Source: a virus (taxonomy: Duplodnaviria; Heunggongvirae; Uroviricota; Caudoviricetes). From it: a DNA stretch of 16,811 nucleotides. The translations under genes and the position numbers were made by a program. Location of the stretch: the IMG/VR virus record IMGVR_UViG_2579778842_000004; one strand, written 5' to 3'. This document shows positions 1 through 16,811 of the stretch, one piece after another; position 1 is the stretch's first letter; each line of letters begins with the position of its first letter. The notes under the pieces are model-generated. The model was given only the letters and a program-made list of their open reading frames with translations. It was not told the DNA's origin and searched no databases.

Positions 1-332
1 AAGATATATTGCTGATTTGAAAAGTTTTTCCCTGTTTTCAGCATGTCTTTCGGCATTATGGTTGCTATTTTTTATTTCAGGTATTAGTTCCTGTTCTACC
101 GCCATTTCGTATCGTTTTTTGCTCTTAGCTGCGTCAAAACTTCCATTAACCTTTGCGTCGTGAAGATATTCTAAATCAGCCTTTGTTATATAAATGTTTT
201 TATCTGACAGGCTACTCAGGTGAATCTGGGAACTTTGCATTTTGAATTTATATAGATCACAATCAAATGTTGCTTCAAGTCGCACATATGGCTCTCCACA
301 TTCTTGTGAATGATAATGTCGTGTTGTACTAC
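1..332. repeat. Terminal direct repeat, left copy (matches 16480-16811)
   Basis: Direct comparison: 1-332 equals 16480-16811 except one substitution (T at 49 vs C at 16528), which is synonymous in the minus-strand ORF. Identity runs to both window edges, so the true repeat may be longer. Confidence 0.95.
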
Positions 333-801
333 CGCGTACACGCAACAATCCGCATGCAATTGATTTTCTTACAATAAAAGAGTTTTTGCCAATTTGTTCA
401 AAAACATTTTTATTGTCTCTGTCTTCAACTGTCAGTGGTTTATGTGCATAAAATAGCTCATAAGCACCGCTTTCAGATGCTGGGATATAAACTTCGTTGC
501 TTGCGCTGGTAATAAGAAAAGGAAATGTAAACCTTACTTCTTCTGGGTACATAAGTAATAAATCAGTTATAAAATCAGCATCTTTTTTGAAGTGGATGGC
601 GGCATCAGCTTCAATGAAATCAAGAAAGTCAGCATAGACATAAAAGTCTATATGTAGTCTATCTTTCCAATGCCATATATCATCAATTTCACAATTTAAT
701 AATTTTGATGCTCGCTCTATCGTGCAGTAGTCCAAAGGTGGAATACCTGATTCCTGCCATAAATTTCTATGCACCGCAGTTGTTTCATGAGAGTCGTTCA
801 T
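1..801 (-). CDS. Hypothetical protein, AT-rich ('gene X'), 5' part; 3' end runs off the window start. Same gene as the 16315-16811 copy if the unit is circular or tandem (about 321 aa).
   Basis: ATG at 801-799 with AAGGTG 6 nt upstream; in-frame TAG further upstream excludes an earlier start. Open frame continues to position 1 (MNDSHETTAVHRNLWQESGIPPLDYCTIERASKLL...). Not in the ORF track because it is truncated. Visibly AT-rich compared with neighbours. Confidence 0.55.
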   Translation of the reverse strand, partial: MNDSHETTAVHRNLWQESGIPPLDYCTIERASKLLNCEIDDIWHWKDRLHIDFYVYADFLDFIEADAAIHFKKDADFITDLLLMYPEEVRFTFPFLITSASNEVYIPASESGAYELFYAHKPLTVEDRDNKNVFEQIGKNSFIVRKSIACGLLRVRGSTTRHYHSQECGEPYVRLEATFDCDLYKFKMQSSQIHLSSLSDKNIYITKADLEYLHDAKVNGSFDAAKSKKRYEMAVEQELIPEIKNSNHNAERHAENREKLFKSAIYL

Positions 802-896
802 TGCGTCACCTTTTACGCTGCGCCTTATTTTGTGATTGAGCCAGGCGGTAAGGCTTCCCGCTTTTCGCCCCGTCGAGCTAGGCTCAATCTATTCAG

Positions 897-2156
897 TTAG
901 TTCGCCCTTCTGAGAGGCGTTACGTTGTAGTCTTTTCCGCTTTCCAGTGCCACCAGCAGATCAGCCCACTGTGCCAGTGCTGCTTTACGCTCATCAAAAT
1001 ACTGATGGCGGTTATAAATCCCCTCTACGCCCTTAATGCGATGATTGAGGCATCGTTCCGCCACAACAGGATCAACACCCAACGCTGCTAAATGAGTACG
1101 TGCGGTGCGTCGGAAGTCGTGAATCGTGAAATTAGGCACATCCGGCATTTCGGCGCGAACCTTAGCCAGTGCTACGGGTAAAGTGCTTTCCTGAATATGT
1201 GGGATCATTCTGTTTTGCATCTTCCTGGCCGGAAGCACCCATGCGCTATTACATGAAAAGGTGTGTAGCTCTCTCAACCATTCAACGGCTGGGGAAGGTA
1301 GAGGTATATCAATAGGGTCTCCGTTTTTGCTGCGTTCTTCCGGCAAATGCCATACCGCACCATCTAAATCAAACTCTTCCCATCGTGCGGCGCATAACTC
1401 CATCTTACGAACGCATAGTGCCAGCAATAGCTTAAATGTCAGTTCGTTCTGGCGGCTGAATCCTTTTGCGGTGCGCATAGCCTCGAATAGCCTGATAAGC
1501 TCATCGCGAGTTAGCCAACGGTCGCGGGAAACCTCTTTACCACCAGCATCAGATACTTCAAACGCTGAACAAGGGTTTATCTCCAGAGCGTGGCGTTTTA
1601 TCCCATAGTCAAAGATACGGCGTGTCCAGCGTAATACATCTGTTGCTATCGTTGGTGCTCCTCGGTCAACGATACCTTTCAACATGTCGTCAATGTGGCG
1701 TGGCTTAACGTCCTCTACCTTCATATGCCCAATGCAGGGGTTAATATCCTTATCAATTCTCCGGCGAAGGATATCGGGATGTTTCCATCTCGGAAGTATC
1801 TGGCGCTCGAAGTATTCGGAGGCCAGATCTGAAACACGCATGGCGTTTTTCTCAGCCTCCATTTTTGCCAGTGCTTCAGCTTTTCGTTCCTGTTTCTCTG
1901 CTGCTACGTCATAGCCAAGAGCAACTCTGGCTGACAGCTCTTTTGCTGTTTCTCTGGCTTTTGATAGTGACAGTTCGGAGTAAGAGCCTATAACCATAGC
2001 CCGCTGCTTTCCTGCGAGCTTATAGCGGAATCGCCAGAACGGGACTGTGTAGTTTTTGGGGTAGCAAATATAAAGGCCGTTGCCGTCTGCCTTGCCATCA
2101 AATCTGTCTCCCGCCTTTATCCATGCGCGGATCTGCATATCTGTGAGTTTTGGCAT
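897..2156 (-). CDS. int: Tyrosine recombinase / integrase, P4-type (N-terminal arm-binding domain plus catalytic domain)
   Basis: N-terminus MPKLTDMQIRAWIKAG...DGNGLYICYPKNYTVPFWRFRYKLAGKQRAMVIGSY is typical of P4-family integrases. C-terminal catalytic motifs HDFRRTARTHLAALG and LNHRIKGVEGIYNRHQY (R...HxxR...Y). Start placed at the internal ATG (2156) rather than the track start 2240, because 2157-2240 is occupied by TGTACA repeats. Confidence 0.88.
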   Translation of the reverse strand: MPKLTDMQIRAWIKAGDRFDGKADGNGLYICYPKNYTVPFWRFRYKLAGKQRAMVIGSYSELSLSKARETAKELSARVALGYDVAAEKQERKAEALAKMEAEKNAMRVSDLASEYFERQILPRWKHPDILRRRIDKDINPCIGHMKVEDVKPRHIDDMLKGIVDRGAPTIATDVLRWTRRIFDYGIKRHALEINPCSAFEVSDAGGKEVSRDRWLTRDELIRLFEAMRTAKGFSRQNELTFKLLLALCVRKMELCAARWEEFDLDGAVWHLPEERSKNGDPIDIPLPSPAVEWLRELHTFSCNSAWVLPARKMQNRMIPHIQESTLPVALAKVRAEMPDVPNFTIHDFRRTARTHLAALGVDPVVAERCLNHRIKGVEGIYNRHQYFDERKAALAQWADLLVALESGKDYNVTPLRRAN

Positions 2157-2185
2157 TGCGAATACCTGAATATCGAATATGGGTG

Positions 2186-2236
2186 TGTACATAAAGCAAT
2201 GTACATGAAAGTCATTATGTACACCTCTATGTACAC
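2186..2236. promoter_or_regulatory. Array of four (A)TGTACA(C/T) repeats just upstream of int
   Basis: tgtacat 2186, atgtacat 2199, atgtacac 2216, atgtacac 2229, spaced 13-17 bp. TGTACA is self-complementary. Candidate operator or arm-type sites. Confidence 0.4.
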
Positions 2237-2281
2237 GCATATTGTGCGCTTTGTTGCGTCGTTATGATAGCTCATGATAAC

Positions 2282-2318
2282 AAAAAAGCCCGACATTTCG
2301 CGGGCTTTGTGTTTTTTT
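2282..2318. terminator. Bidirectional rho-independent terminator-like hairpin
   Basis: A-run 2282-2287, stem aagcccg (2286-2292) / cgggctt (2301-2307), loop 8 nt, then TTTGTGTTTTTTT. T-run available on both strands. Confidence 0.5.
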
Positions 2319-2427
2319 GCTGCTTGGTGATTTTTACTGATGGCTTATTCGATATTCTGAATCTGTTTGTAGAGTATTGGCTTCAATGCCGCATTGTAGC
2401 TGGTTTCTTCCTAATGCGATTTTTGAT

Positions 2428-2447
2428 TATGTACACCCTTATGTACA
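2428..2447. promoter_or_regulatory. Second pair of ATGTACAC repeats (ttatgtacacccttatgtacacgg)
   Basis: Near-identical to the 2215-2238 pair, about 210 bp away on the other side of the terminator. Confidence 0.3.
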
Positions 2448-2740
2448 CGGTTTTTTCGGGTGCTTTGGTCAGAAGCCATTGCCTACATCCCTCACGATCG
2501 AGGTGTGTAACCATGTTCAGGCTTGTTGTCCTGCGCGCGCGTATTGCTCGTGAAATTGCTGTACCCAATAGTGATGTCCGAAAAAACCTCCGTTCTCACA
2601 TGAAACAGCCATATGCAACTGGTAACTGAACAGACTGGTAGACCGTTCGTTCAGTAAATACCTGATATTTTCGCCAACGAGAAATTGCGTTGGCTGGCAG
2701 GGTGCAAATTTGCACGATGGACTAACCCATTGATTCTTTC

Positions 2741-2765
2741 GAAAACCCCCATTGGGGGAAAAGCC
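2741..2765 (-). terminator. Weak terminator-like hairpin downstream of the PerC-like gene
   Basis: On the minus strand CCCCC-AAU-GGGGG followed by UUUUC; lies about 115 nt past the stop at 2875. Adjacent perfect palindrome gtgcaaatttgcac at 2702-2715. Confidence 0.3.
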
Positions 2766-2874
2766 TAACTCATTGGTTTTCCCACAATCCTCAATTTGAG
2801 GAATGTACCTAAAACCATTTTTATAGCTCCGATCCCTTCAAAGTGAGGGGTAATTTGCCAAAACAGAGAGAGCA

Positions 2875-3162
2875 TTACTGTCTCTGGCAATCTTTATCGC
2901 GATAACGCCTGAAGTACCCTCTCGCTTCCTCATCCATACCAAGAGCCGAATGAGTCCGCTTAACTGCCTGTCTTAAATCTCCGAATCTGTCTGTAGTTGC
3001 TGGTGGGCGTGCCGCCTTACGGATACATTCAGAGCGTCTGTTTGCTGCATGTTCACGTTCTTTATCGCCATCTGCCAGCATCATGACTTCTGCCCATCGT
3101 GCGGCAGCTCTCCGGTATAGCCCTTTTGACTCCAGCTCTTCAGCTTTCCTGTCCCTTATCAT
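2875..3162 (-). CDS. Small basic regulator, PerC/ANR-family-like (tentative)
   Basis: 95 aa, MIRDRKAEELESKGLYRRAAARWAEVMM... matches my recollection of the N-terminal pattern of PerC-type small activators; GAGAGG 6 nt upstream of ATG. Family assignment is from memory, not a search. Confidence 0.55.
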   Translation of the reverse strand: MIRDRKAEELESKGLYRRAAARWAEVMMLADGDKEREHAANRRSECIRKAARPPATTDRFGDLRQAVKRTHSALGMDEEARGYFRRYRDKDCQRQ

Positions 3163-3198
3163 TTCTGCCTCTCAGATTATATAGATAAGCAAAAAGGT

Positions 3199-3319
3199 GT
3201 TGGTTCAGTTGGTTCAGTTGGTTCAATTTGTAAAGATCGTTGTTTTTATTGTGTTTTTTCTGAAATATTGAACCAACATCAACTCATTTTGAACCAACAC
3301 AGCCCAGCTCTGAACCAAC
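3199..3319. repeat. Iteron cluster A: 3 tandem GTTGGTTCA (3199-3225) plus 3 inverted TGAACCAAC at 3269, 3290, 3311 (21-bp phasing)
   Basis: Read directly. The whole block is an imperfect reverse complement of cluster B (9351-9461), including the shared spacer atttgtaaaga. Confidence 0.65.
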
Positions 3320-3373
3320 AACACAGCGATAGCTTTGTGATTGGCCCGTTATTTTCTGGCTGATATTTGAGCG

Positions 3374-3404
3374 TATAACAGTGTTATACAGTGGTATACT
3401 GTAT
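3374..3404. promoter_or_regulatory. Two adjacent palindromes upstream of the RHH gene (candidate operators)
   Basis: TATAACA-g-TGTTATA (3374-3388) and ATACAGT-ggtat-ACTGTAT (3386-3404), overlapping a TATACT -10-like hexamer about 12 nt before the ATG. Confidence 0.4.
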
Positions 3405-3421
3405 GGATATTACTCACTGAT

Positions 3422-3877
3422 ATGGTCTTTGCAATGAGCAAATCTAATCTGGTCGCGTTCCGCATCCCATCTGAATTGCAGGATGAGTTTAATCGGTCTG
3501 TTCTCGCTTCTGGAGGGGATAAAACCTCCTGGCTTGTTGATGCGATTCGCATGAAGCTGGGACAGCCGGAAAAGTCTATTGATTCACGAATGCTTGGGCT
3601 GGTGGAGCGCATGGAAAAAGCTGCTGCGTCGCTTATTGCCGGAAAGCCGAACATCCCACCAAAGCCATATAACGAAACGGCAGTTATAAAGATCATTGCC
3701 GATACCATCCGACAGGGATTTGATAATGGGCGTGTGATAGCTGAACGGATCAATGAAGCAGGCTATCAAACAAAAGCTGGTAAAGCGTGGGATAAAGATA
3801 TTTACAGCGCGTGGAAGCGTCAGGGAAGCAATGCTGAAAAGTTAAAAGCGGTGATTGATTGTAAGGTCAGCGTATAA
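3422..3877 (+). CDS. Ribbon-helix-helix (Arc/MetJ/CopG-like) DNA-binding protein with C-terminal extension
   Basis: N-terminus SNLVAFRIPSELQDEFNRSVLASGGDKTSWLVDAIRMKL fits the beta-strand/helix/helix RHH pattern. No clear SD; alternative start at ATG 3434. Confidence 0.6.
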   Translation: MVFAMSKSNLVAFRIPSELQDEFNRSVLASGGDKTSWLVDAIRMKLGQPEKSIDSRMLGLVERMEKAAASLIAGKPNIPPKPYNETAVIKIIADTIRQGFDNGRVIAERINEAGYQTKAGKAWDKDIYSAWKRQGSNAEKLKAVIDCKVSV

Positions 3878-3956
3878 ACATGAGTGCCCATTGGAAAGCT
3901 GCTTGGGCCAATACCTTTATACACCAGCAGGTGGTGACGATAGGTGAGGATCAGGA

Positions 3957-4178
3957 ATGAAAGGCAGAACGCCACACATTGAACATCAAGCCAACCACTT
4001 CTCGGATGTTCGCAATGAGATGATTGCCATTCGCGGTGATATGCACGGCTTGGAGCGTCGAATTATTGATAAGATTGATGAAAATAGAGATAAGGCCAGT
4101 GAAAATCAAAAGTGGATCATCGGCCTGTTGATTTTATCAATGCTTATCCCGCTACTTATCGCATTGGTCACAAAATGA
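3957..4178 (+). CDS. Small tail-anchored membrane protein (coiled-coil N-terminus, single C-terminal TM)
   Basis: 73 aa; C-terminal WIIGLLILSMLIPLLIALVTK is one hydrophobic helix. Topology resembles XhlA-like or holin-like small proteins, but no family confirmed. Confidence 0.5.
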   Translation: MKGRTPHIEHQANHFSDVRNEMIAIRGDMHGLERRIIDKIDENRDKASENQKWIIGLLILSMLIPLLIALVTK

Positions 4179-4699
4179 ATATCCAATGTGTATGCTGTCG
4201 ATGCTACGCGCACGTACTTGTCGCAAAATATCAGACAAAAGCCAGATTCAGAACGTCGTGATAACCACCAGCACAACAGAGAGGTCATGTAACGCGATTT
4301 ATCACACCAGATACATGTGATTGGTGTACCCGCATAAAACATCGTCATAGCGCGTCCTGTGCGCATATACGCCGATAATCAACACATCACCACCACTCTG
4401 TCTCATGTAGAGAACACTTTTATGGTATCCCCCGCCATCGTGCGCGTACTAGTCGGACGCAGTTGCAAAACTTTTTGCAACTGATACCCCTCGCGCGCGT
4501 ACTTGTCTCGAAATTGGTGTTTTGCTGTGGCAGTGATATCAGAAAAATCTTCCTGTTTCACATAAAGCGGATATGCGCGTACTGTAACGACCCCATCAAC
4601 GGGGGCGGATTTGAAATCCCGACCCAAGCTATGTACCAAATGCCATGTCTTGGATATATGATGATTGCCATTCTAAACAACGCTAAAGGGAGGGTTGGT

Positions 4700-5314
4700 G
4701 TGAGCAGAAAAGATACTAAAGAATTGCTAACTATCTGCATGGTGTACTTTTCAATTTATTTTTGTGCATACATGATAGTCCCAGATGAGTTTGAACATGG
4801 CAGTATTATTTATTCCATAACATTCTATTTTTTAGAGCTAACACCAATTTTGGCTATCCTTTTGGCAATACATATTTATTTTTCCTTAAAAAAAGAATCG
4901 ACTAATTGGGAGAAGGTATGGAGAGACAGAGGATTTCTAACATCACCTAAAGATGATGCATATGAGAGTGATTTTTCAGACTTTATAACAAACTACTACT
5001 CCAGCGAACGATTCAAAAATAGACTGTCTGATGTTTGGGAAACAGCAATGTATTCTATAGGGATTATATTATTGATACTTACTGGTATTGCTCAATATGT
5101 TTTTAACATTGACTTATCATTAAATCCTGAAAATTTAATATCGCCATTGATTTTTGGTGAGATATTGATCTTCTCATTCGGAATTTTCTTGAGTGTTGTT
5201 CTCTGCTCATTATGCAAGCTACTGACTAACAGGTATCCGGGTGAAGCAAGGAGAGCAAGAAAGGCAAATCCATATTATCTTTTATTTCCTAATGGAGACA
5301 GCAGAGATATCTAA
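4700..5314 (+). CDS. AT-rich integral membrane protein, about 4 TM helices, unknown function
   Basis: GTG at 4700 preceded by AAAGGGAGGG (5-nt spacer). Composition drops sharply in GC at about 4690. Four hydrophobic segments (LLTICMVYFSIYFCAYMIV, IIYSITFYFLELTPILAILLAIHIYF, AMYSIGIILLILTGIAQYVF, LISPLIFGEILIFSFGIFLSVVLCSLC). The track's longer start (4463) would include repeat-rich DNA. Confidence 0.6.
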   Translation: MSRKDTKELLTICMVYFSIYFCAYMIVPDEFEHGSIIYSITFYFLELTPILAILLAIHIYFSLKKESTNWEKVWRDRGFLTSPKDDAYESDFSDFITNYYSSERFKNRLSDVWETAMYSIGIILLILTGIAQYVFNIDLSLNPENLISPLIFGEILIFSFGIFLSVVLCSLCKLLTNRYPGEARRARKANPYYLLFPNGDSRDI

Positions 5315-5332
5315 GCCATCCATGGCCATCTG

Positions 5333-7348: not shown

Positions 7349-8736
7349 TCCACCGTAAATTGAATGCCTGATTTTGACGTGTAGCTACCTCCTGCTGATT
7401 GCTGAGTAGCTGGCTGTTGCCTTGATGATTTCTTCCCGCCATTACCGACATTAACGTTATATTGCTGGTTGTAATTGTCGGTATATTGCTGAATGTCGCG
7501 CATTGATTGTTGTAGTGCTTCAGGGCTTGAGAAATCAGGCTTTGGCATACCTTGAAAATACCTATTGGCCTCTGCTTCGGTGTTGATGCCAGATGCCCCC
7601 ATATCTCGGGCTGCCGCAATCCCCTGATTTTGCATTTTGCCCAGGATTCGCTGTGCAGCGTTGTATAGCCTCCTCTCCTCAGCACCAGATGCCCGGCTAC
7701 GAATATCTGCACCAAGAGCAAAAGAACCTGAAGAACCAGTAATACCTGTCATGAAGCCAATATCGTCAATTGATGCGCCAGAAATTGCCTCAAGATCTTT
7801 CTTCATTTCGTAATTCTGCGCATTAGCTGCCGACGTGGCCGGAGCAGCAATAGAGCCAGCTGGAACGCGAACTATGTTCCCCTCATTGTCTATACCTTCG
7901 TAGAACGCGTTAGCACCAGCACCATGAAGTTTCCCGCCTACGGTTACAGTTCTTCCGTCTGCTAGTTGAACTGTGCGCTCATTATTCCCAACCGCCCCTT
8001 TCATTGATGTTCTCTGCATCGCTAAATCCTGACCGCGCATCGTGATGTTCTGTCCTCGTGCTGTTAGCGCCTCGCCAGCCTGATTGCTGCGGATTGTCTC
8101 TGCCAACTTGTCACGCTCAATATCCCGACCTTCCATTTGATCTTTGATATCGAAGTACTTCTCATGGCCGAGAGAAAACAGTGCCAGATTACCTGCGAAG
8201 TGCTGGAAGCCCTGCGGGTCATTAACCTGCATTTCAGCAATAGTTTCTGGAGGGATACCTAAACGACGCATCTCCTTTTCGTTATCCATCATGAACCTGC
8301 CAAATGCGCCCGGACCAAGCGACGAAGCTACCTGTGCTTTAAGCGCCAGATTGCCAAAATCATCCCGCTGGGCGTCATCGACATACCCCATGCCTTTACG
8401 GACTTCCTCAAACTCTTCTGGGAATGCTGTAATAAGATTACGCATCTTCTCCCTGTCGCCGGACGCATAAGCATCTGCATAACCTTTCTGGAATGCCGCT
8501 TTACGCTCCTGCTGTTGCTGCTGCTTATAAATATCAGCAACTCCAGCCAGACCACGAAGACCTGTCAGAGCAACGTTATTTGCACCTGATCGAGCCAGTT
8601 CATTGTTTTCGCGGATCAGACCAAGCGTTGCGTTAATGTCGCTTGCCTTTGGCGCATTCTCATTTTGCGTACCGATGCCAGCCAGAAAACCACCAGAATT
8701 AATACCCTGTTGCCACGTAGCCATTGATTTACCCAC
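7345..8736 (-). CDS. Large (about 460 aa) low-complexity Gly/Ala/Gln/Asn-rich protein; function unknown
   Basis: Long ORF, translationally coupled to the 671-aa gene. Track start is GTG 8736; ATG at 8724 ([12 protein letters not shown]...) is an alternative. Confidence 0.78.
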
Positions 8737-8902
8737 GTCCAGTTAAAGTGTAAGTCAGCGCCTTATCCATTAATCCCCGAGCAATTTCGTGGATCGTTGG
8801 CGCAACTCCTACCTCTGATTTTTTACGCTGCTCCTCCTGAATTTTCTTTATCGCTTCCATTTGTTTCTCACTTATCAATACTGGCTTTACTGAAATAGCC
8901 AT
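8729..8902 (-). CDS. Possible small Lys/Glu-rich ORF (57 aa) heading the large-protein operon
   Basis: ATG at 8902 with AAGGGGG 4 nt upstream (cagttctAAGGGGGcgttATG); stop at 8729-8731, 4 nt before ATG 8724. Not in the ORF track, presumably because it is short. Confidence 0.3.
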
Positions 8903-8997
8903 AACGCCCCCTTAGAACTGTATAAAACAACAGTTATTATAATTTCATAAAACGCAACATTCATCATTGTGATTGCAAAATATGAAACAAATAGCAC

Positions 8998-9030
8998 AAA
9001 AAAATGCCACCGCTCATTAGCTGGTGGCAT
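8998..9030 (-). terminator. Rho-independent terminator closing the primase operon
   Basis: On the minus strand: stem AUGCCACC / GGUGGCAU (9004-9011 / 9023-9030) followed by U7 (complement of A-run 8998-9004). Confidence 0.5.
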
Positions 9031-9350
9031 CGTTCTGTATGTCAGGTTTTGACAGGTTTTTTATGGACTCTAAAAACTATATTTATGGTGTCGCATTACT
9101 CTTCACGGCAGGCGCTTTCCAGTTCTGCCCTTGCTTCTGGCTCCATTGGTAATTTGATTCGAAATCAGCTATGCGGATGGTTTGCTGAACAGGCATAACA
9201 ACTTCTCAGAGGCTGTTTTTTTGAACTACGAAAATTTCGTAGTGCTCACTTTCAAAAACGTCACGCCCTTGTACACAGGATTTTACGAAAGTCTCGTAAA
9301 GCACTCTCTGATGCCAGCCAGATGTTGTGCTCATCAATTCAGTCACGTTG

Positions 9351-9461
9351 TGTTGGTTCAAAATGCCGTGTTGTTGGTTCAGTGTTGGTTCAATAAAAAG
9401 AATAAAATCCTTATAAAACAATACTCTTTACAAATTGAACCAACTGAACCAACTGAACCAA
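9351..9461. repeat. Iteron cluster B: 3 GTTGGTTCA (9351, 9372, 9383) plus 3 tandem TGAACCAAC (9435-9461)
   Basis: Read directly; mirror image of cluster A, immediately downstream of the primase stop (9488). Confidence 0.65.
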
Positions 9462-9487
9462 CACCTTTTCTACGCACATGAAGAAGC

Positions 9488-12250
9488 TCATTCTTCAGAT
9501 GAGTTATAATCTCCTGGCTGGTAATTGAGTACATAAACGTTTATTTGTCGTCCCTGAATACGTGGTGATTTTCTTTGGTATCCACGACCGCTGTTTGGTG
9601 GGGTTAGCATCCCGGCTTTTTTCAACACTTCAGCAAACTGTTTTGCGTTGAAACCACATGCGATCTCCTTTTCAAATGTGGCCGGGAATGTGTAGAAAAT
9701 CATTGGGCTTTCGTCATGTTCTCCACGCTGACGGTATCCGGCTAAATCTTTGATGGGCAAATCTGCCGGGCTGTATGGAAATGGTGCAAAACGGCTAAGC
9801 CCATAGGCATTAAGAAATGCCTCCGTTTGTTCAATAATCTGCTGATGCTCTTTGTTACCTGTGCCGAACTCGCGCAACCATGCGTTATAGCTGTGCTGTA
9901 TCGCATCACGGCATGTCTGAGCATCCCAGCCTGTTACAACCTCGCCTAACAACAATGCGGCCTCCAGAATGGCAAATCGCGCGGCTACACGGTGAACCTG
10001 CTCACCATAATCGGATGGGATCAGGCTTCTCCATCTGCTTTCGCAATCACGAACAGTTTTAATAGCCTGTTGCTGGTGGTCTGCCAGCCATTTAATCCAC
10101 TCACGCCCGGCTGCGCCATGGTGATGCTGGTAAGCGTCTTTCAGTGCGTCTGCGTGCTGTTTTCCGTTCTGGTAATCGTGAAAGCGTACTGCTTTACTCA
10201 ACGGAATATTCAGCAGTCGCACCAGTTGCCCGGCTTTGGTTTTTCGCCCGGAAGTAGCGATAAATGTTTCTAAATCCATTTCTCCGGTGCTGATTGCCAC
10301 TGTGCGCCAGCGTTTTAGATCCCGGTTTCCACCATCTTTAGCGCCTTGCAGTTTCCCTACACCGTTAAATAACGCATAGGCAGACTGTGAAACACTGACA
10401 GGATCAGCGCCCTGACCAACTTCATCAAGCGGCATTAGTCCGTCATTGTGGGCGGCAGCTTCATTTGCCAGCCCCAGCGCGGTTCCGTACCACGTCAGCC
10501 GCAGTAAATCAGGGTTGCCGTATAAGCTGCTCGCCACGTTTGCCGTGGTGGTCTTACCTGCGCTCGACTGCTCATAGAAATGAATGCCGAACCCGTCAGC
10601 GCCCACCAGCCCAATCAATGGCGCTGCCAGTGCTGCGCCGATCCCGGTCATCATTGAATAGTTACCAAAGGCCAGACGCGCCACGTTATCACGCCAGCTT
10701 TTCGCGCTCCCTGAGACGGTATATCCGGCTGCGGCTGAGCTTCTCCCGCTGAACAGCACAGGATTTTCAGGTGTTCCGATGATTTCCCCATCAGGCATGA
10801 TGTACGCTCCGCATTGCCAGCCAGTGGCATGAGCAACACGCCACAATTCACGAGAGCCACTGCGTTGTAGCCAGTCTGCCAGTATTGCTCTGAGGCTGCT
10901 TTTGGTCGTGACATTTACCCCACCAGCTTTCAGGGTGCGCCAGCCTTCACGCTCGCCAATATCAGCCAGCGGGATAGCCGCTGTTGTCGGTATGCCTGCA
11001 CCGAATGCCAGCCATGAGATAATAAGATACTGATCTTTGTCGTCGCGTCCCGTGCCGATAACCTCCAACGGGGAACATAACCAGCTTTCAGCGTTGACGA
11101 TCTCCCCGCTTTCCTTGTCCACCTTCGGCGTTACCCAGAAAACGCCATCTTTGCGGCTCTCAATGTGGGGTTTTAGTGGATCTTTCTCTGGATGGTCAGT
11201 TTTACCGCCCTCAATGGCTTGCAATCGCGGTTTCACGGCTTCCCCTTGAATCTGGTACATCGAATCGTTAAACGCAGCCGTAGCGACTTCCAGCCCGTTT
11301 TGCTGGCGGTAGTCGTCCCAGTCGGCTTTGTAGTCTGTCGGCGGCAGTGCCACCCAGCCAGCCACGGATAAGGCGGCTTTCTCTGCGGCATCTTTGCCCG
11401 TGTTCGCCTGTTCGTCCTGCTGGTGGTCGTTATCTGCGGCAATGATAATCTGCGTGGCTGGATATATCCGGCGCATCACTTCGGCAACGGGTAGCAGGTT
11501 GCCCGCATCAATGGCGCACACTGTCAGCGCGTCAGGGCGCATCAGGTGGACTGATAAAGCGGTTGCCAGCCCCTCGGCAATTAAAACGCTCTGCGGCGAT
11601 TCTGGCGCGTTTACGGCGTGATATGCCCCGCGCTTTGCTGAACCTGTCAGGAGTCGCTTCTCTCCCTGCGGTGTAATGGTTTGCGCTGCTGCCACTGCGC
11701 CGGATTCGTCCACCAGCTCCAGCAATAACGAACCATCCGGCATAACCGGATAGTTAAACCCGGTCAGCCCTTTTGATTGCAGGTAATCAGATTCGCCCTG
11801 TGTGGCACTCTGGCGCATTCCGGCATACAGATGGGCAAACGTAGCCCTTCGCTGCTCTGCGTCCTCTGCTGCCTGTTTCTGGCGCTCCTGCTCACGCTGC
11901 TGGCGGTCAGCTTCCAGTTGCTCCCTTCTATGGCTCGCTGCCACCGGGTCGGATTGCGCTGCCCGGTAATCAATACCCAGAACATCAGCGACAAGAAGCG
12001 CCGCCTCTGTTGTGTCGCAGTTATTTACGCGTTTAATTAAATCCAGCCCATCACCAGCGCCGCACTGATTACAGATGAAGCTACCGCGCCCGTTGTCATC
12101 GAACCGGAATCGATCTTTGCCCCCACATGCAGGGCAGGGAGCATGACGGCGCGGAGAGTCAGGGACATTTATGTTCAGGCAGCCCAGCACATGAGGCCAG
12201 TTGTTTTCAGACGCACTGATAACCTGACGGATAAGATCAATGTTTCGCAT
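9488..12250 (-). CDS. Primase-helicase, P4 alpha-like (N-terminal zinc ribbon, TOPRIM, C-terminal P-loop NTPase)
   Basis: 920 aa. Zinc ribbon CPACGG...FICNQCG; TOPRIM-like VLIAEGLATALS ... IIIAADNDHQ; Walker-A-like FYEQSSAGKTTTANV. GGGGG 5 nt upstream of ATG. Confidence 0.9.
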   Translation of the reverse strand: MRNIDLIRQVISASENNWPHVLGCLNINVPDSPRRHAPCPACGGKDRFRFDDNGRGSFICNQCGAGDGLDLIKRVNNCDTTEAALLVADVLGIDYRAAQSDPVAASHRREQLEADRQQREQERQKQAAEDAEQRRATFAHLYAGMRQSATQGESDYLQSKGLTGFNYPVMPDGSLLLELVDESGAVAAAQTITPQGEKRLLTGSAKRGAYHAVNAPESPQSVLIAEGLATALSVHLMRPDALTVCAIDAGNLLPVAEVMRRIYPATQIIIAADNDHQQDEQANTGKDAAEKAALSVAGWVALPPTDYKADWDDYRQQNGLEVATAAFNDSMYQIQGEAVKPRLQAIEGGKTDHPEKDPLKPHIESRKDGVFWVTPKVDKESGEIVNAESWLCSPLEVIGTGRDDKDQYLIISWLAFGAGIPTTAAIPLADIGEREGWRTLKAGGVNVTTKSSLRAILADWLQRSGSRELWRVAHATGWQCGAYIMPDGEIIGTPENPVLFSGRSSAAAGYTVSGSAKSWRDNVARLAFGNYSMMTGIGAALAAPLIGLVGADGFGIHFYEQSSAGKTTTANVASSLYGNPDLLRLTWYGTALGLANEAAAHNDGLMPLDEVGQGADPVSVSQSAYALFNGVGKLQGAKDGGNRDLKRWRTVAISTGEMDLETFIATSGRKTKAGQLVRLLNIPLSKAVRFHDYQNGKQHADALKDAYQHHHGAAGREWIKWLADHQQQAIKTVRDCESRWRSLIPSDYGEQVHRVAARFAILEAALLLGEVVTGWDAQTCRDAIQHSYNAWLREFGTGNKEHQQIIEQTEAFLNAYGLSRFAPFPYSPADLPIKDLAGYRQRGEHDESPMIFYTFPATFEKEIACGFNAKQFAEVLKKAGMLTPPNSGRGYQRKSPRIQGRQINVYVLNYQPGDYNSSEE

Positions 12251-12262
12251 TCTGGCCCCCGT

Positions 12263-12865
12263 TTAGTGCGTCACTGGTGCTTCTGGGATGCCGTTTTCGT
12301 TTAGTTCGGCAATAAAGCTGTTGTGAAGATCGGCAAGCACTTCTCGCCCAAACGAAGTGAGTGTTCCCTGTTCGACATCGAACATGTTGCTGTAAAAAAT
12401 GATGGCATTCTTTGTTCCGACATCAACACCATATTTCTCGATCATTGCGCCCTCAATGTTGTTTGCCATAGCGAGGCGCTCTGCTACTGGATACAGCGGC
12501 ATGGCGACGATGCCATTGGAATAAACAGAAACCACGGAATGATTGCCACTGTCATCAATAATGCTGACGGTGCCGTTTTCCTTTCTCATTTCATTGATGA
12601 ATGCTGTTGCTATCAGCCAGCGCCACATAATCACGTGATGCTGTGATGTGTAATCGAAATATCCCTGGTTGCCGCCACTGGCAATAGCGAGATGTATAAA
12701 CATGCCTTCATCTGGTTTATCGTCATAATCCCCGGCATCCAGACGATTTACGGCATCAATATATGAGACGGTCTCAACGCGTTCTGTCATGCCATCGTTG
12801 CTGCGGTACATGATGTTTACGCCGTCAGGCGTTGCTTCTGCATGGAAAGTTAAGAAATTATTCAT
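12263..12865 (-). CDS. Hypothetical protein (200 aa)
   Basis: Start moved to ATG 12865 (MNNFLTFHAEATPDG...), which overlaps the stop of the upstream 73-aa gene. The track start 12970 would overlap that gene by 35 codons. Confidence 0.6.
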   Translation of the reverse strand: MNNFLTFHAEATPDGVNIMYRSNDGMTERVETVSYIDAVNRLDAGDYDDKPDEGMFIHLAIASGGNQGYFDYTSQHHVIMWRWLIATAFINEMRKENGTVSIIDDSGNHSVVSVYSNGIVAMPLYPVAERLAMANNIEGAMIEKYGVDVGTKNAIIFYSNMFDVEQGTLTSFGREVLADLHNSFIAELNENGIPEAPVTH

Positions 12866-13079
12866 GTTTCGCCTCGCCTGAATGATTCTGTAACTCATAT
12901 TTGCCCAACAATTCGTCTGCTTCCTGAATAGCTTCTGGTACGCCATTGAGCAGTGACATAACCGCGCCAATCATTAACTTGTCTCTGTTGCTGGGGCTGG
13001 CCCCTTCAAGCCAGAACCCTAAAACAGTCTGAACCTGTTCGATACGACATTGCGCTTCAATGAGCTGGATGTTGGTCAT
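12858..13079 (-). CDS. Small acidic hypothetical protein (73 aa)
   Basis: Member of a chain of stop/start-overlapping small ORFs on the minus strand. Confidence 0.5.
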   Translation of the reverse strand: MTNIQLIEAQCRIEQVQTVLGFWLEGASPSNRDKLMIGAVMSLLNGVPEAIQEADELLGKYELQNHSGEAKHE

Positions 13080-13339
13080 TTCGCACTCTCCGCATCGATT
13101 AAACTGATATCTATCAGAGAGGTAACTTTTTGTAGCCAGCTAGTGATTACTGTCGCCTGTTCCCCTCCCACCGATGGAAGAATCTCATTCATCACATGAA
13201 CCAGACCTGTGCGCGCTCTGGTAAGCCGTTCAGTCGTGCGATCTGCAAGAGTGAATGTGTCTGGATATGGCTCTTCACGGCTCAGCAATGATTCAATTTC
13301 CAGCTCACACGGATGACGATAAATTAAGTTGATATTCAT
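13076..13339 (-). CDS. Small acidic hypothetical protein (87 aa)
   Basis: ATGA overlap with neighbours on both sides. Confidence 0.5.
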   Translation of the reverse strand: MNINLIYRHPCELEIESLLSREEPYPDTFTLADRTTERLTRARTGLVHVMNEILPSVGGEQATVITSWLQKVTSLIDISLIDAESAK

Positions 13340-13530
13340 TTTTCACCCCCAAGAATTACCAGCTCTGCACGGGCATCGTTAACCAAAGATGAGCACGCTT
13401 TAATCGCATCCACGACATCAGTAGCGTCCATTTCTTCAGCCGAAAGACTGACAGCAACCAGGACAGCCGCTGCTTGCTCGATTAATTGAAGTGCGGACGT
13501 AAGGCGAGGGGTATTAATTGAGTTATTCAT
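13336..13530 (-). CDS. Small acidic hypothetical protein (64 aa)
   Basis: ATGA-type overlap with neighbours. Confidence 0.5.
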   Translation of the reverse strand: MNNSINTPRLTSALQLIEQAAAVLVAVSLSAEEMDATDVVDAIKACSSLVNDARAELVILGGEK

Positions 13531-13741
13531 TGGTTTCCCCCGTTTTTACTGGCATTTCGCCACCTTCCAGCAGGAAATGAACGTCACGAACGGCGAGATC
13601 CAATATCGCGAGTAACGCCTTCAGTCTTTCGTCTCGTGAGGGAGAGTTGCTCACCAGAATGTCGTTAATCACTTCTGTCAGTGTGATGATCTGGCTTGTG
13701 CGTTCGAGGGGATCCATATGCACATCGTAGGTTTTAATCAT
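13523..13741 (-). CDS. Small acidic hypothetical protein (72 aa)
   Basis: ATG 13741 with GGAGGTG 6 nt upstream; overlaps the stop of the 13734-13928 ORF (CATGATTAA). In frame with the long 13523-14551 open frame. Confidence 0.5.
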   Translation of the reverse strand: MIKTYDVHMDPLERTSQIITLTEVINDILVSNSPSRDERLKALLAILDLAVRDVHFLLEGGEMPVKTGETNE

Positions 13742-14551
13742 GTGCCACCTCCATGCGGATACGACCAGCAAAAAAGCAGACGTGATCGCGCACCAGAGAA
13801 CGGCGAGCATCGCGTTCAGACTCGGCAGCAATATGATGAATTTTGGCGGTAATTGTCGGGCAATCGCGGCGAACTGCGGCGATAATCCAGATAAATTGCG
13901 GTTTTTGGGTAGGGGTAGTAGCCAGCATGTGGCAGCCTCCTTGATTGATGGTTTATAGCCACCGCCGGAGGTCCTAAGCTCGCTGGCGGTGGACTGTACA
14001 GGGTTAGGACTACTGGCAATCAAGGAAACCAGCCTGACCGAAGTCAGCCCCATACAGCCCACCATTGATAAGGTGTGCGTGTGCGCCGATACAAAAAAAG
14101 ACGCTGGCGCGTCATGTATCGCCTCGATTGCCTGCGGGGTCCTAATCCCGGCACCCGTTTTATGAGGTGCCTTATAACCATAAACCGTGTTGCCGCATAA
14201 CGGCAAGCTCTTTTTTATGGACTCCGAAAACTCACTATTGGAAGCACCAGATGCACAATACATCGCGCTCATTTCGTTAACGTCACGCACGTGGACGAAT
14301 GTTTTTGTGGAGTCACTACACGAGCAGAACAGGTGATCTACGACCAGAAATTCTCTGGCGCAGCCGCTGACCTTCTCAACGCTAACACCATCGACCGTAA
14401 TTTCTGACATAGTTAAGGCATCCGCTCCTACCACCAGCAAATGATAAACTTTGCTTGTATCTGCTGTATTAATGCCTGACTTTGCTGTCATATTGCTGGA
14501 TTTTGGCGACATACCAGCCAGTGAAAATGTCTTCTTCTGGACGGTTAGCAT
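13523..14551 (-). CDS. Long uninterrupted open frame (342 codons); N-terminal about 150 codons look coding, middle section coincides with RNA structures; possibly composite or frameshifted
   Basis: ATG 14551 has GGAGG 7 nt upstream and overlaps the upstream stop (ATGCTAA). No in-frame stop until 13523; a T7 run sits at 14099-14093. Alternative annotation is the two small ORFs listed separately. Confidence 0.3.
13734..13928 (-). CDS. Small basic hypothetical protein (64 aa)
   Basis: ATG 13928 preceded by textbook SD AAGGAGG (13942-13936, 7-nt spacer). The SD lies in the 3' arm of a predicted RNA stem. Confidence 0.45.
   Translation of the reverse strand: MLATTPTQKPQFIWIIAAVRRDCPTITAKIHHIAAESERDARRSLVRDHVCFFAGRIRMEVAHD
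13936..14113 (-). promoter_or_regulatory. Structured RNA leader/attenuator-like region (minus-strand transcript)
   Basis: 5' to 3' on the minus strand: hairpin GACGC-GCCA-GCGUC then U7 (14113-14093); CUGAC-UUCG-GUCAG tetraloop hairpin (14047-14034); 9-bp long-range stem CCUUGAUUG (14025-14017) pairing CAAUCAAGG (13947-13939), which contains the SD of the 13928 ORF and encloses an 8-bp hairpin CCACCGCC/GGCGGUGG (13992-13959). Confidence 0.4.
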
Positions 14552-14727
14552 TTGTTAACCTCCGCGAACTCCTTCATGAAACGCGCCAGCGGTTGTACGC
14601 ATGGCGATTGATACCCGTCGCGATAGAACGTCACTCGGTTGTGAGACACGCTTTCGACAGTAACGAGTGCTCCGTGGGCATCTTTGTAGCGTTTTTGAGG
14701 TTGTGGTGTTCCTGTAGGCTTAAACAT
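14545..14727 (-). CDS. Small hypothetical protein (60 aa)
   Basis: ATG 14727 with GGAGG 6 nt upstream, 4 nt after the AntA-like stop (MFKPTGTPQPQKRYKDAHGALVTVESV...). The track start 14814 would overlap the upstream gene. Confidence 0.5.
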   Translation of the reverse strand: MFKPTGTPQPQKRYKDAHGALVTVESVSHNRVTFYRDGYQSPCVQPLARFMKEFAEVNKC

Positions 14728-15553
14728 GGACCGCCTCCAGACGCTTAGCGAGCCAGCGTTGCGACAGGCGGGTGAGTTCTCCTTTGCGCTGCTCATATTC
14801 CATGCCCATATCAATTAACGTGATATTGGTGCTTTCGAGATATGAGAGGTGCTCAAGTTGTTCTGCGTTCATATGGTCGCGAGGTTCGCCAGAATAGCCA
14901 TTTATCCGCGCCCACTGCTTAGCAGTTAGCCCACCAAGAACGATACGAGAAATCATATTGCTCTCGTTTGTGTAGTGGTGTTGCTGCGTCGTTTTCCCCT
15001 GCTCGGCACGGGCCATATTCAGCGCATCGCACATTGGCTTAAAGTTGTTTGCGGCACTGATACGGGCTTTTAGCTGGCGACGATAGCGGGCGGCGATTTC
15101 AGGAACGCTACGCTGTAATTCTTCCTCGCACTGGATGAAATAACGGCGGATAGCGCGCCCCTGATCATTGCGTTCGATCATTGCCAGTTCTTTCGCCATT
15201 CCGACACTTAACAGATAGTCTTTGCCGGGTCTGCCAGAGTGCTTAATCTTGCTGTAAGCCGTGCCATTCGGGCTTTTCCCCAAATTTGGGGAAATTGTTT
15301 TATGGACTGAGTAATCGTGCCCAATGGTGAAGTCATATTCAGAGATGCGATCAGTGATCCATGTAGAGAAGTCTTTTCCCACGCCCAACGCTTTGTGTAA
15401 CGCTTTTGCGCTAACAATATTGGTTTCACGCCCACCGATATGACCAGGAATAACCGGGACAATTGCGGCAAATTCATTACCGTTAATTGTGCCCAGAGAG
15501 GCGTTCAGATGAGGGGCGGCCTCAGAAATTAATCTGCTTTTTTCGATGTTCAT
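14720..15553 (-). CDS. Phage antirepressor-like protein (AntA-type N-terminal domain)
   Basis: 277 aa; N-terminal segment ...NIVSAKALHKALGVGKDFSTWITDRISEYDFTIGHDY... matches the AntA/Bro-type signature as I recall it; GGAGA 7 nt upstream. Confidence 0.7.
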   Translation of the reverse strand: MNIEKSRLISEAAPHLNASLGTINGNEFAAIVPVIPGHIGGRETNIVSAKALHKALGVGKDFSTWITDRISEYDFTIGHDYSVHKTISPNLGKSPNGTAYSKIKHSGRPGKDYLLSVGMAKELAMIERNDQGRAIRRYFIQCEEELQRSVPEIAARYRRQLKARISAANNFKPMCDALNMARAEQGKTTQQHHYTNESNMISRIVLGGLTAKQWARINGYSGEPRDHMNAEQLEHLSYLESTNITLIDMGMEYEQRKGELTRLSQRWLAKRLEAVHV

Positions 15554-15565
15554 TTTCAGTCTCCG

Positions 15566-15997
15566 TTAGGCGGCGTTAAACGCGTTCGGGTAGAGTTTCA
15601 GAATGTCGGCAATTTCCTGCTGAGAAAGTCCGTTGTGATCATTTATGTTCGCAAGATGGTTAACATGAGTGATCACTTTCAGAACATCACCACGGCAGGA
15701 GAAACGGTAGCGAAGGTGTGTTCCGATACCATCAGGATTCTTTTCGTCGATACGCTCCAGAGTGATTCCAAGCTGGCGTTCTAACTCTGTTGCATAGTTA
15801 CGACCAGAAGACAGACGGCAGTAGCGAAGAATGTCATTTTCTGTCCATCCCTCTATACCAGTACGCAGCATATAGACTCTGGCACGATGCTTTTTCGGTG
15901 TGCGCTTTGGTTCTTGAAGGGATTTTGTAAGGGGCGTAACATCAGATACGCGAATATCTGAATTAGCCGCCTGTAATGGGCGGTTTTTCTTTTCCAT
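15566..15997 (-). CDS. Hypothetical protein (143 aa), translationally coupled to the AlpA-like gene
   Basis: ATG overlaps the AlpA-like stop (TGATG); AAGGTGG 5 nt upstream. Confidence 0.6.
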   Translation of the reverse strand: MEKKNRPLQAANSDIRVSDVTPLTKSLQEPKRTPKKHRARVYMLRTGIEGWTENDILRYCRLSSGRNYATELERQLGITLERIDEKNPDGIGTHLRYRFSCRGDVLKVITHVNHLANINDHNGLSQQEIADILKLYPNAFNAA

Positions 15998-16200
15998 CAG
16001 GCCACCTTCCCGCGGCGTTCTGCCAGCCAGTTGTGAATCTCAACCGCATCAAACGCAGTTATTTTTTCTCCCAGCTTTACCGGACGTGGTAGTGAACCGT
16101 TTCTTACTTTACGGTCGATGGTGGATACACTAACGCCCAGCAATTCAGCCAGGCGGAAGCGTCTGATATAGCCTTTTGTAGGAATAGTGTCGGTGTTCAT
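15997..16200 (-). CDS. alpA: AlpA-family / excisionase-type helix-turn-helix regulator
   Basis: 67 aa; RFRLAELLGVSVSTIDRKVRNGSLPRPVKLGEKITAFDAVEIHNWL fits the AlpA/Xis HTH pattern; first gene of the long minus-strand operon. Confidence 0.75.
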   Translation of the reverse strand: MNTDTIPTKGYIRRFRLAELLGVSVSTIDRKVRNGSLPRPVKLGEKITAFDAVEIHNWLAERRGKVA

Positions 16201-16204
16201 GCTT

Positions 16205-16259
16205 CCCGTAACCTCTTAGCGATAGTTGTTGCTTCGTTACGGGAGGAAGTATCTGTACA
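16205..16259 (-). promoter_or_regulatory. Leader of the AlpA-like gene: 8-bp inverted repeat around the SD plus one TGTACA motif
   Basis: CCCGTAAC (16205-16212) and GTTACGGG (16236-16243) separated by 23 nt; AAGAGG lies at the loop/stem junction; tgtaca at 16254-16259. Confidence 0.35.
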
Positions 16260-16270
16260 TATATGAACAA

Positions 16271-16298
16271 TAAAAAGGCACAGTAATGATACTGTGCC
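16271..16298 (-). terminator. Rho-independent terminator downstream of gene X
   Basis: Minus strand: stem GGCACAGU / ACUGUGCC (16298-16291 / 16284-16277), 6-nt loop, then U5 (complement of A-run 16272-16276); 17 nt after the stop at 16315. Confidence 0.55.
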
Positions 16299-16314
16299 TG
16301 AATAGTTAGCTACT

Positions 16315-16811
16315 CTACCCCTTACCGTTGGCGGCAGCACGTAAGTGTCTCAAAATCACATCTTCATTTGTGATTGCTAACGGTGGAATTTCGTCTTTAT
16401 GAGCCACTATGCAATCCCGCCACTTCTCAGGGCTTATTTCTTTCTTTTTGCCACGGCATTCATCAGGATACTTTGACAAAAGATATATTGCTGATTTGAA
16501 AAGTTTTTCCCTGTTTTCAGCATGTCTCTCGGCATTATGGTTGCTATTTTTTATTTCAGGTATTAGTTCCTGTTCTACCGCCATTTCGTATCGTTTTTTG
16601 CTCTTAGCTGCGTCAAAACTTCCATTAACCTTTGCGTCGTGAAGATATTCTAAATCAGCCTTTGTTATATAAATGTTTTTATCTGACAGGCTACTCAGGT
16701 GAATCTGGGAACTTTGCATTTTGAATTTATATAGATCACAATCAAATGTTGCTTCAAGTCGCACATATGGCTCTCCACATTCTTGTGAATGATAATGTCG
16801 TGTTGTACTAC
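16315..16811 (-). CDS. Hypothetical AT-rich protein ('gene X'), 3' part; 5' end runs off the window end
   Basis: Frame is open from the window end to the stop at 16315. The last 54 codons (LSKYPDECRGKKKEISPEKWRDCIVAHKDEIPPLAITNEDVILRHLRAAANGKG) are unique; the rest duplicates 1-332 in the same frame. Confidence 0.6.
   Translation of the reverse strand, partial: STTRHYHSQECGEPYVRLEATFDCDLYKFKMQSSQIHLSSLSDKNIYITKADLEYLHDAKVNGSFDAAKSKKRYEMAVEQELIPEIKNSNHNAERHAENREKLFKSAIYLLSKYPDECRGKKKEISPEKWRDCIVAHKDEIPPLAITNEDVILRHLRAAANGKG
16480..16811. repeat. Terminal direct repeat, right copy (matches 1-332)
   Basis: See left copy; offset between copies is 16479 bp. Confidence 0.95.

Follow-up and report, generated by a model that had tools for sequence, protein, structure and literature searches.

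The terminal repeat and the gene that contains it

The window studied here, a stretch of 16,811 nucleotides from the IMG/VR virus record IMGVR_UViG_2579778842_000004, holds an integrative island, and the first and last nucleotides of the window repeat each other. Judged by gene order and similarity, the window is one unit of a phage-inducible chromosomal island (PICI) resembling EcCIMP1, that is, a helper-dependent phage satellite of Escherichia coli (Table 1). EcCIMP1 is the PICI of E. coli MP1, and its helper is the P22-like phage vB_EcoP_Kapi1 (Pick, Stadel and Raivio, ISME J 2025, PMC11773190). Positions 1-332 and 16480-16811 of the window are identical at 331 of 332 nucleotides, which gives a repeating unit of 16,479 bp, and the sole mismatch is a T at position 49 of the left copy that faces a C at 16528 in the right copy. 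When overlap lengths of 300-399 bp were compared, every length except 332 gave at least 10 mismatches; the agreement of the window ends is far beyond chance.

The repeat lies inside a gene of the minus strand such that window 801..1 followed by 16479..16315 reads in frame as a single open reading frame (ORF) of 966 bp and 321 codons, in which the mismatch at position 49 is synonymous (GAA/GAG, both Glu). A terminator-like hairpin (16299-16276) comes after its stop codon. A public E. coli protein cluster (P0001) matches the joined 321-aa protein at 100% identity from end to end. An earlier note on the window had described both the 332-bp near-identical ends with their one synonymous mismatch and a protein-coding gene restored across the junction; the end comparison bears out the first statement, and the intact ORF with its database counterpart the second.

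In the chromosomal copy of the island in strain ETEC1749, the 332-bp segment is found once (extracted locus L001, 20134-20465), and the flanks of both window copies are contiguous around it. Each of the 76 complete E. coli genomes with this segment likewise has it once. The left copy, with its T, has no exact match in any of these 76 carriers, where its best identity is 99.7%; the one checked difference between ETEC1749 and the left copy is the C at position 49.

The chromosomal counterpart and its attachment sites

A megablast search of the window against 5,426 complete E. coli genomes revealed an island of 100% identity in four porcine enterotoxigenic E. coli (ETEC) chromosomes, ETEC1749, ETEC4085, rl0044 and UMNK88, the first of them from Belgium and the others from elsewhere. 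The match in these genomes falls into two pieces with a combined span of about 16.5 kb, and the island is single-copy. In ETEC1749 it lies between dinD and yicC, with the integrase gene adjoining attR and yicC. The window is a circular permutation of this island: positions 1-2365 correspond to its right part up to attR and positions 2345-16811 to attL onward, such that the two pieces overlap by exactly 21 bp (TTATTCGATATTCTGAATCTG, 2345-2365). Outside this att core and position 49, zero differences separate the window from the ETEC island. The earlier note had offered three explanations of the repeat, namely circular permutation of a contig, a genome that is packaged or terminally redundant, or tandem integration, and the permutation of an integrative island supports that set of readings. 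Its statement that the repeat is not an att core duplication also stands, given that the true 21-bp core lies about 2 kb away from the repeat.

All five exact copies of the 9-mer TATGTACAC in the window fall within attP, at 2185, 2216 and 2228 on the integrase side of the core and at 2428 and 2440 on the PerC side, and in the chromosome they are divided, some at attL and the others at attR. A reconstituted attP speaks for a mobile island and not for a dead remnant. No tRNA gene is present in the window. The empty site, reconstructed from the dinD flank, the core and yicC, is intact in 3,933 of the 5,426 complete genomes, K-12 MG1655 included.

The attL cores are a 19-bp variant of the attP core, TTATTCGATGTTGAATCTG in ETEC (L001, 6001-6019) and TTACTCAATATTGAATCTG in strain HB37 (L013, ~2059-2077), and strain 13E0780 has an empty site of this 19-bp type (L018, 316-334) with a native alternative yicC end, QIQH followed by the stop codon. 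The gene yicC has two natural 3' ends, one of the 21-bp type, whose product ends in QIQNIE, and one of the 19-bp type, whose product ends in QIQH or QIQY. As read from these sites, the island supplies a replacement 3' end for yicC, of the 21-bp type contained in attP, and the 19-bp end of the host survives as the attL core. The block GAATCTG at the right edge of the core is the only one common to all four kinds of att site compared, and for that reason strand exchange would be placed within it; an exchange at that point would explain why attP carries the 21-bp form.

Excised and tandem relatives

A query with the attP region matched 292 complete genomes, among which one has the attP junction in its chromosome and two have it on a separate episomal contig. 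In the first episomal case, a chicken isolate, a related island was deposited as a circular 'plasmid' of 12,152 bp (NZ_CP148430.1, L012); in the second, a related island forms a contig of 19,226 bp named 'phage_14408_2' (NZ_LT599831.1, L014), which ends within the gp16 gene and not in the 321-codon gene, so break points vary between assemblies. Since both records carry the same attP as the window, excised forms of the EcCIMP1-like family have been captured repeatedly, and mislabelled, in assemblies of isolates. The chromosomal case is HB37 (NZ_CP053080.1, 183830-224300; L013), with two related islands of about 18.2 kb arranged head to tail between dinD and yicC. Different genes are frameshifted in each HB37 copy, which may reflect long-read errors. 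Contigs retrieved through PerC and through the 321-aa protein held integrated chromosomal copies only.

Origin of the terminal repeat

We think it probable that the repeat is an overlap produced when the excised episome, or a concatemer of it, was written out as a linear contig, and that it does not stem from a chromosomal tandem. This reading is preferred because close relatives that share the attP of the window appear in assemblies as molecules of their own, because the T allele is matched exactly in no other genome and stands 49 bp from the contig end, and because the identical islands of complete genomes are single-copy. In the course of events that we propose, the integrase would recombine attL with attR at the 3' end of yicC to yield a 16,479-bp circle with attP, the primase of the island would act at an iteron origin to give head-to-tail concatemers, and a P22-like helper would package circularly permuted DNA from them. 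The circle, the concatemers or the packaged permuted DNA would then have been assembled as a linear contig that overshot its own start by 332 bp, such that the break point in the 321-codon gene would be arbitrary. Both the nature of the physical template, an episome or concatemer, and that of the helper, a P22-like phage, are inferred; packaging of this island would be expected by analogy with EcCIMP1. As for the T/C difference, which stands 49 bp from the end of the contig, an error of the consensus or a minor variant is the most likely cause.

Several points weigh against an overlap of this origin. De Bruijn assemblers leave exact k-mer overlaps on circular contigs, and a 332-bp overlap that includes a mismatch is something different. 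The junction between the two HB37 copies is identical to the attP junction of the window, such that a chromosomal tandem also holds an internal attP. The exact attP junction found no match in IMG/VR, in JGI metagenomes or in the GTDB representative genomes. Family scans recognised no packaging-redirection gene in the window, nor a capsid-size-redirection gene, and a search of the window for the P22 pac sequence, with up to 3 mismatches allowed, found nothing.

The next reading in order of merit is a chromosomal tandem, with two head-to-tail copies in the order attL-island-attP-island-attR between dinD and yicC, from which the window would run from the middle of copy 1 to the same point of copy 2. 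HB37 demonstrates that such an array of a related island exists, and a real single-nucleotide polymorphism between the copies would account for the T/C mismatch. We nevertheless hold it to be unlikely: the four complete genomes with the 100%-identical island all have it once, the chromosomal junction was met in 1 of the 292 genomes against 2 with an episomal contig, and the T allele, unmatched elsewhere, suits an end-of-contig error at least equally well by its position. Besides, a length of exactly one unit plus 332 bp would fit a whole contig better than an arbitrary cut of a chromosome.

Less probable still is a physical terminal redundancy, in which one headful-packaged linear molecule of about 102% of the unit, for example from a small capsid, would have been read end to end. 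Headful packaging typically leaves a redundancy of a few percent, and 332 of 16,479 bp (2.0%) falls within that range; an island of 16.5 kb amounts to about one third of a P22-type genome, a ratio as in P4/P2 and in the Staphylococcus aureus pathogenicity islands and their helper 80alpha. The relative EcCIMP1 is indeed transduced by its P22-like helper, although at low frequency and very inefficiently (PMC11773190). However, headful ends are permuted, and an assembly of many molecules would not keep one redundancy. It would survive only in a single-molecule read, which normally has far more than one error in 16.8 kb, whereas the rest of the window, the att core apart, does not differ from the ETEC island. 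The window also yielded no match to a terminase, a capsid-size-redirection gene or a pac site.

Two paralogous genes, or an integrated element bounded by a long att duplication, which the earlier note had named as the outcome that would overturn its view, have nothing in their favour except the repeat itself and practically no chance of being correct, as the segment is single-copy in 76/76 genomes, its flanks meet around one chromosomal copy, the true att core is only 21 bp long (2345-2365) and the island is in fact bordered by dinD and yicC.

As a terminal repeat, then, the 332-bp overlap is ordinary; it is the expected signature of an excised satellite in circular or concatemeric form. A direct terminal repeat can make a contig of some 16 kb resemble a complete small viral genome, yet this one is a helper-dependent satellite without capsid genes. 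We rejected a complete phage genome with direct terminal repeats, as there is no morphogenesis set and the coverage of the window by any phage record is at most 6%.

Backbone genes and iterons

The Pfam scan covered the 19 annotated genes and one extra ORF, and the PHROG and NCBIfam scans covered the unassigned proteins. The Pfam and PHROG scans of the window ORFs gave no match to capsid, portal, terminase, tail or lysis families, and PADLOC identified no known defence system in ten island proteins, the cargo proteins among them. The AlpA gene is on the same strand as int, and only the 321-codon gene lies between the two. The PerC-family regulator is of the kind shown to silence virulence genes belonging to the enterocyte effacement locus (LEE); the PerC homologue of EcCIMP1 represses the LEE (PMC11773190). 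The EcCIMP1-like family is very common in E. coli, the PerC protein by itself having 19,910 indexed blocks in the assembly collection.

Table 1. Sites and genes of the 16,811-bp window, with positions counted from its first nucleotide.
Feature	Position	Strand	Basis or remark
Terminal direct repeat, left copy, private T allele at 49	1..332		331/332 identity; no exact match in complete genomes
321-codon gene, 5' part (codons 1-267), continues at 16479..16315	1..801	-	In-frame ORF; match to P0001
Tyrosine integrase, 419 aa	897..2156	-	Arm-DNA-bind_3 9e-20, Phage_int_M 1e-16, Phage_integrase 7e-17
Complete attP	2185..2448		21-bp core TTATTCGATATTCTGAATCTG at 2345-2365; five exact TATGTACAC arm-type sites
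PerC-family regulator, 95 aa	2875..3162	-	PerC 2.6e-33
Iteron cluster A	3199..3319		3 tandem GTTGGTTCA, 43-bp AT-rich spacer, 3 inverted copies at 21-bp spacing; just upstream of PerC
Two small genes of the variable cargo region: 147 aa (3434-3877) and 73 aa (3957-4178)	3434..4178	+	Annotated hypothetical; no family match
SieA-like inner-membrane protein, 204 aa, convergent with the gp16 homologue	4700..5314	+	Pairwise match to P22 SieA
P22 gp16 ejection-protein homologue, 671 aa	5333..7348	-	phrog_770 DNA transfer protein 8e-167, full length
P22 gp20 ejection-protein homologue, 459 aa	7345..8724	-	Inj_translocase 1.2e-83; 63% identity, full length, to P22 gp20
57-aa gene preceding the ejection-protein genes	8729..8902	-	Annotation; conserved in relatives
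Iteron cluster B	9352..9462		Reverse complement of cluster A; 26 bp downstream of the primase stop
Primase/replication protein, 920 aa	9488..12250	-	DUF927 1.8e-49, Zn_Ribbon_Prim 3e-15, Toprim_3 5e-14
Four small conserved genes (200, 73, 87, 64 aa)	12263..13530	-	phrog_1515 and phrog_20558, both function-unknown families
Ash-family protein	13523..14551	-	Phage_ASH 2e-14
DUF4222 protein	14545..14727	-	DUF4222 6e-25
AntA antirepressor-family protein	14720..15553	-	AntA 2e-21
143-aa protein	15566..15997	-	Within regulatory module 13523..16200
AlpA, 67 aa	15997..16200	-	Phage_AlpA 2.2e-8
321-codon gene, 3' part including the stop codon	16315..16811	-	Joined ORF; 16480-16811 repeats the window start
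Terminal direct repeat, right copy, C at 16528 (ETEC1749 allele)	16480..16811		End comparison

The 321-aa protein has 48 homologues (P0001-P0048), in Enterobacterales only and all annotated as hypothetical. No family or relative was found for it in Pfam, PHROGs, PADLOC, NCBIfam or the PDB sequences, and a Foldseek search of the PDB with its AlphaFold model (34 sequences, mean predicted local distance difference test score 71.6) gave no match with E < 0.2. The protein is a mosaic in which only the C-terminal ~120 aa are conserved across Enterobacterales, nearly all the invariant residues lying at 251-318. The slot between int and alpA is occupied by different genes among the relatives (321, 293 or 216 aa, and a small protein in EcCIMP1), such that it looks like a second variable cargo slot.

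The window contains 12 exact copies of the iteron GTTGGTTCA, in two clusters. With one mismatch allowed there are 18 sites against 4 expected, a number reached in 0 of 200 shuffles. Cluster B, by its repeats and its place after the primase gene, is likely the replication origin. The two clusters, in inverted orientation, bracket the entire variable cargo region. EcCIMP1 and six other relatives keep the pair, at distances of 1.9 to 8.5 kb, and a relative with a DUF5906-type primase has the PerC-side cluster only.

Ejection-protein and SieA cargo

Several phages of Salmonella and E. coli have a counterpart of the gp20 gene, labelled an injection or DNA transfer protein, to which the gp20 homologue is about 90% identical in nucleotides over most of its length; the gp16 homologue aligns with P22 gp16 at 30% identity over 482 aa (E 8e-54). 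An alignment of 108 aa with 30% identity (E 2e-8) links the 204-aa protein to P22 SieA and sets its NRYPGEA against GRYPGEA; the protein has four hydrophobic segments and is encoded beside gene 16, in the same synteny as the 16-sieA pair of P22. RYPxEA (FxRYPxEA, cytoplasmic) is the conserved motif of SieA (Leavitt et al., mBio 2024, PMC10883804), and the motif, a predicted multi-pass topology and a gene 16 neighbour, the marks of the SieA family, are all found in the 204-aa protein. A 99%-identical relative has a precomputed Pfam SIEA match; the local Pfam scan reported none for the 204-aa protein itself. A tblastn search of 50,697 phage records with the SieA-like protein returned no match, the homology to P22 SieA being seen in the direct pairwise comparison only. 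At 95% identity or more the protein occurs in 103 of the 5,426 complete genomes, with a hypothetical annotation in the 30 listed among these. By motif, predicted topology and synteny, it is a previously unannotated SieA homologue carried by a satellite rather than by a P22-like prophage; each sieA that Leavitt et al. examined in detail lay in a P22-like prophage (PMC10883804).

The gp20/gp16 pair is retained in 12 of the 14 relatives that were examined, some of which have DUF2824 and gp7 homologues in addition. The 12-kb episomal relative is without the pair, which is thus dispensable for circle formation. Comparison of the window with relatives L004, L010, L013, L014 and L015 distinguished a long form of the ejection module (53-aa gene, DUF2824, gp7, gp20 and gp16) from a short form, the one in the window (57-aa gene, gp20 and gp16). 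To go by its gene content, the short form would have to depend on the helper for gp7. In EcCIMP1 (L015, 4932-5630), the position of sieA downstream of the gp16 homologue is occupied by an unrelated 232-aa protein, which resembles TraT, a surface-exclusion lipoprotein (E 0.09), and DUF4136 only faintly and not to a significant degree.

The authors of the EcCIMP1 study saw the 'DNA transfer' genes, proposed a packaging role for them, and reported a superinfection immunity against the helper that was left unexplained (PMC11773190). The 232-aa protein could be a candidate for that immunity, but its similarity to TraT and DUF4136 is non-significant. For P22-like phages, gp16 and gp20 need to be a matched, co-adapted pair, and SieA escape mutations map to both (PMC10883804). 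It is conceivable, although we are inclined to doubt it, that the cargo of the window works as a functional unit in which gp20 and gp16 supplied by the satellite would form the conduit in P22-like helper particles and SieA would block superinfecting P22-like phages. Two variants can be envisaged: satellite DNA may enter cells that exclude phages of the helper type, or mismatched gp16/gp20 pairs may poison the helper virions. We entertain this idea because both ejection-protein genes are intact and of full length, gp16 and gp20 must be co-adapted and are the proteins to which SieA escape maps (PMC10883804), and 12 of 14 relatives retain the pair. If true, it would make this the first satellite for which a supply of ejection proteins has been shown, and would point to where the basis of the EcCIMP1 superinfection immunity may be sought. 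The ejection-protein and SieA cargo is a testable lead on the interaction of satellites and helpers for P22-like phages and, along with the paired iteron clusters, worth following up.

Comparison with known systems

The island has several of the features by which PICIs are recognised. Its integrase gene lies at one end, by attR, and att direct repeats (a 21-bp core and its 19-bp attL variant) flank it at the specific dinD/yicC site in the complete genomes examined in detail; AlpA is close to int and in the same orientation; it has a primase of its own next to an origin that is putative from sequence; and it forms attP, as seen in the reconstituted site, a junction that a chromosomal tandem would show as well. 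In size and gene content it is a 16,479-bp unit without any match to capsid, portal, terminase, tail or lysis genes, but with gp20 and gp16 homologues of structural components of the P22 virion. A capsid-forming PICI (cf-PICI) was rejected in the absence of its own capsid, portal, protease and terminase genes.

Satellite P4 and P4-like elements resemble the island in being integrative satellites (about 11-17 kb) that excise to a circle, and they have in common with it the integrase, AlpA, the large primase, the Ash-type gene and a variable cargo hotspot. The primase of the island, however, has DUF927 and not the D5-type domain of P4 alpha, and its likely helper is a P22-like podovirus, not P2. 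Pfam, PHROG and NCBIfam scans of the window proteins gave no match to the Psu, Delta, Sid and Epsilon families, and without that module we rejected a P4-like element. The cargo resembles the 7-20-16-sieA block of P22, with 63% identity for gp20, 30% for gp16 and 30% for SieA, and with the 20-16 order and a convergent sieA, but the copy in the window is carried by a satellite without any other virion gene, and gene 7 is absent.

With the classical Gram-negative PICIs EcCICFT073 and EcCIEDL933 (Fillol-Salom et al. 2018, via PMC11773190) the island shares, as far as they are described there, an AlpA gene beside int in the same orientation, a primase and its origin, cargo of the PerC kind, a length of 10-20 kb and the lack of capsid and lysis genes. 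EcCIMP1-type islands cluster apart from these classical PICIs and are without their packaging module (PMC11773190), and the family scans recognised no gene of the Rpp, TerS or capsid-morphogenesis type in the window.

Against EcCIMP1 itself there are both differences and likenesses. EcCIMP1 is integrated at a tRNA-Thr gene between proA and yagU, whereas the site of the window island is the 3' end of yicC with its 21-bp core, and the integrases differ. EcCIMP1 is longer (20.0 kb against a unit of 16.5 kb) and has DUF2824 and gp7 homologues and a second AlpA, which the window island does not have. The gp20 and gp16 alleles also differ, the gp16 of EcCIMP1 being a 906-aa protein with a transglycosylase domain, in contrast to the 671 aa in the window; EcCIMP1 lacks the SieA homologue and the 321-aa gene. 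EcCIMP1 excises and circularises only when Kapi1 is present and requires its own AlpA and integrase (PMC11773190), and the window island is known from its sequence alone. Yet the two islands have the same order of int, AlpA, 143-aa protein, AntA, DUF4222, Ash, small genes, Toprim-DUF927 primase, ejection genes, cargo and PerC. In the stretch that runs from the primase gene through the regulatory genes, about 7.9 kb (48% of the unit) align at 88-96% nucleotide identity, with 94% across window 12265-16007. The 73-aa and 87-aa proteins WP_000181940 and WP_001024679 are identical in both, and the inverted pair of iteron clusters is found in both. The island is a further member of this described satellite family, and identical copies of it are already in public genomes.

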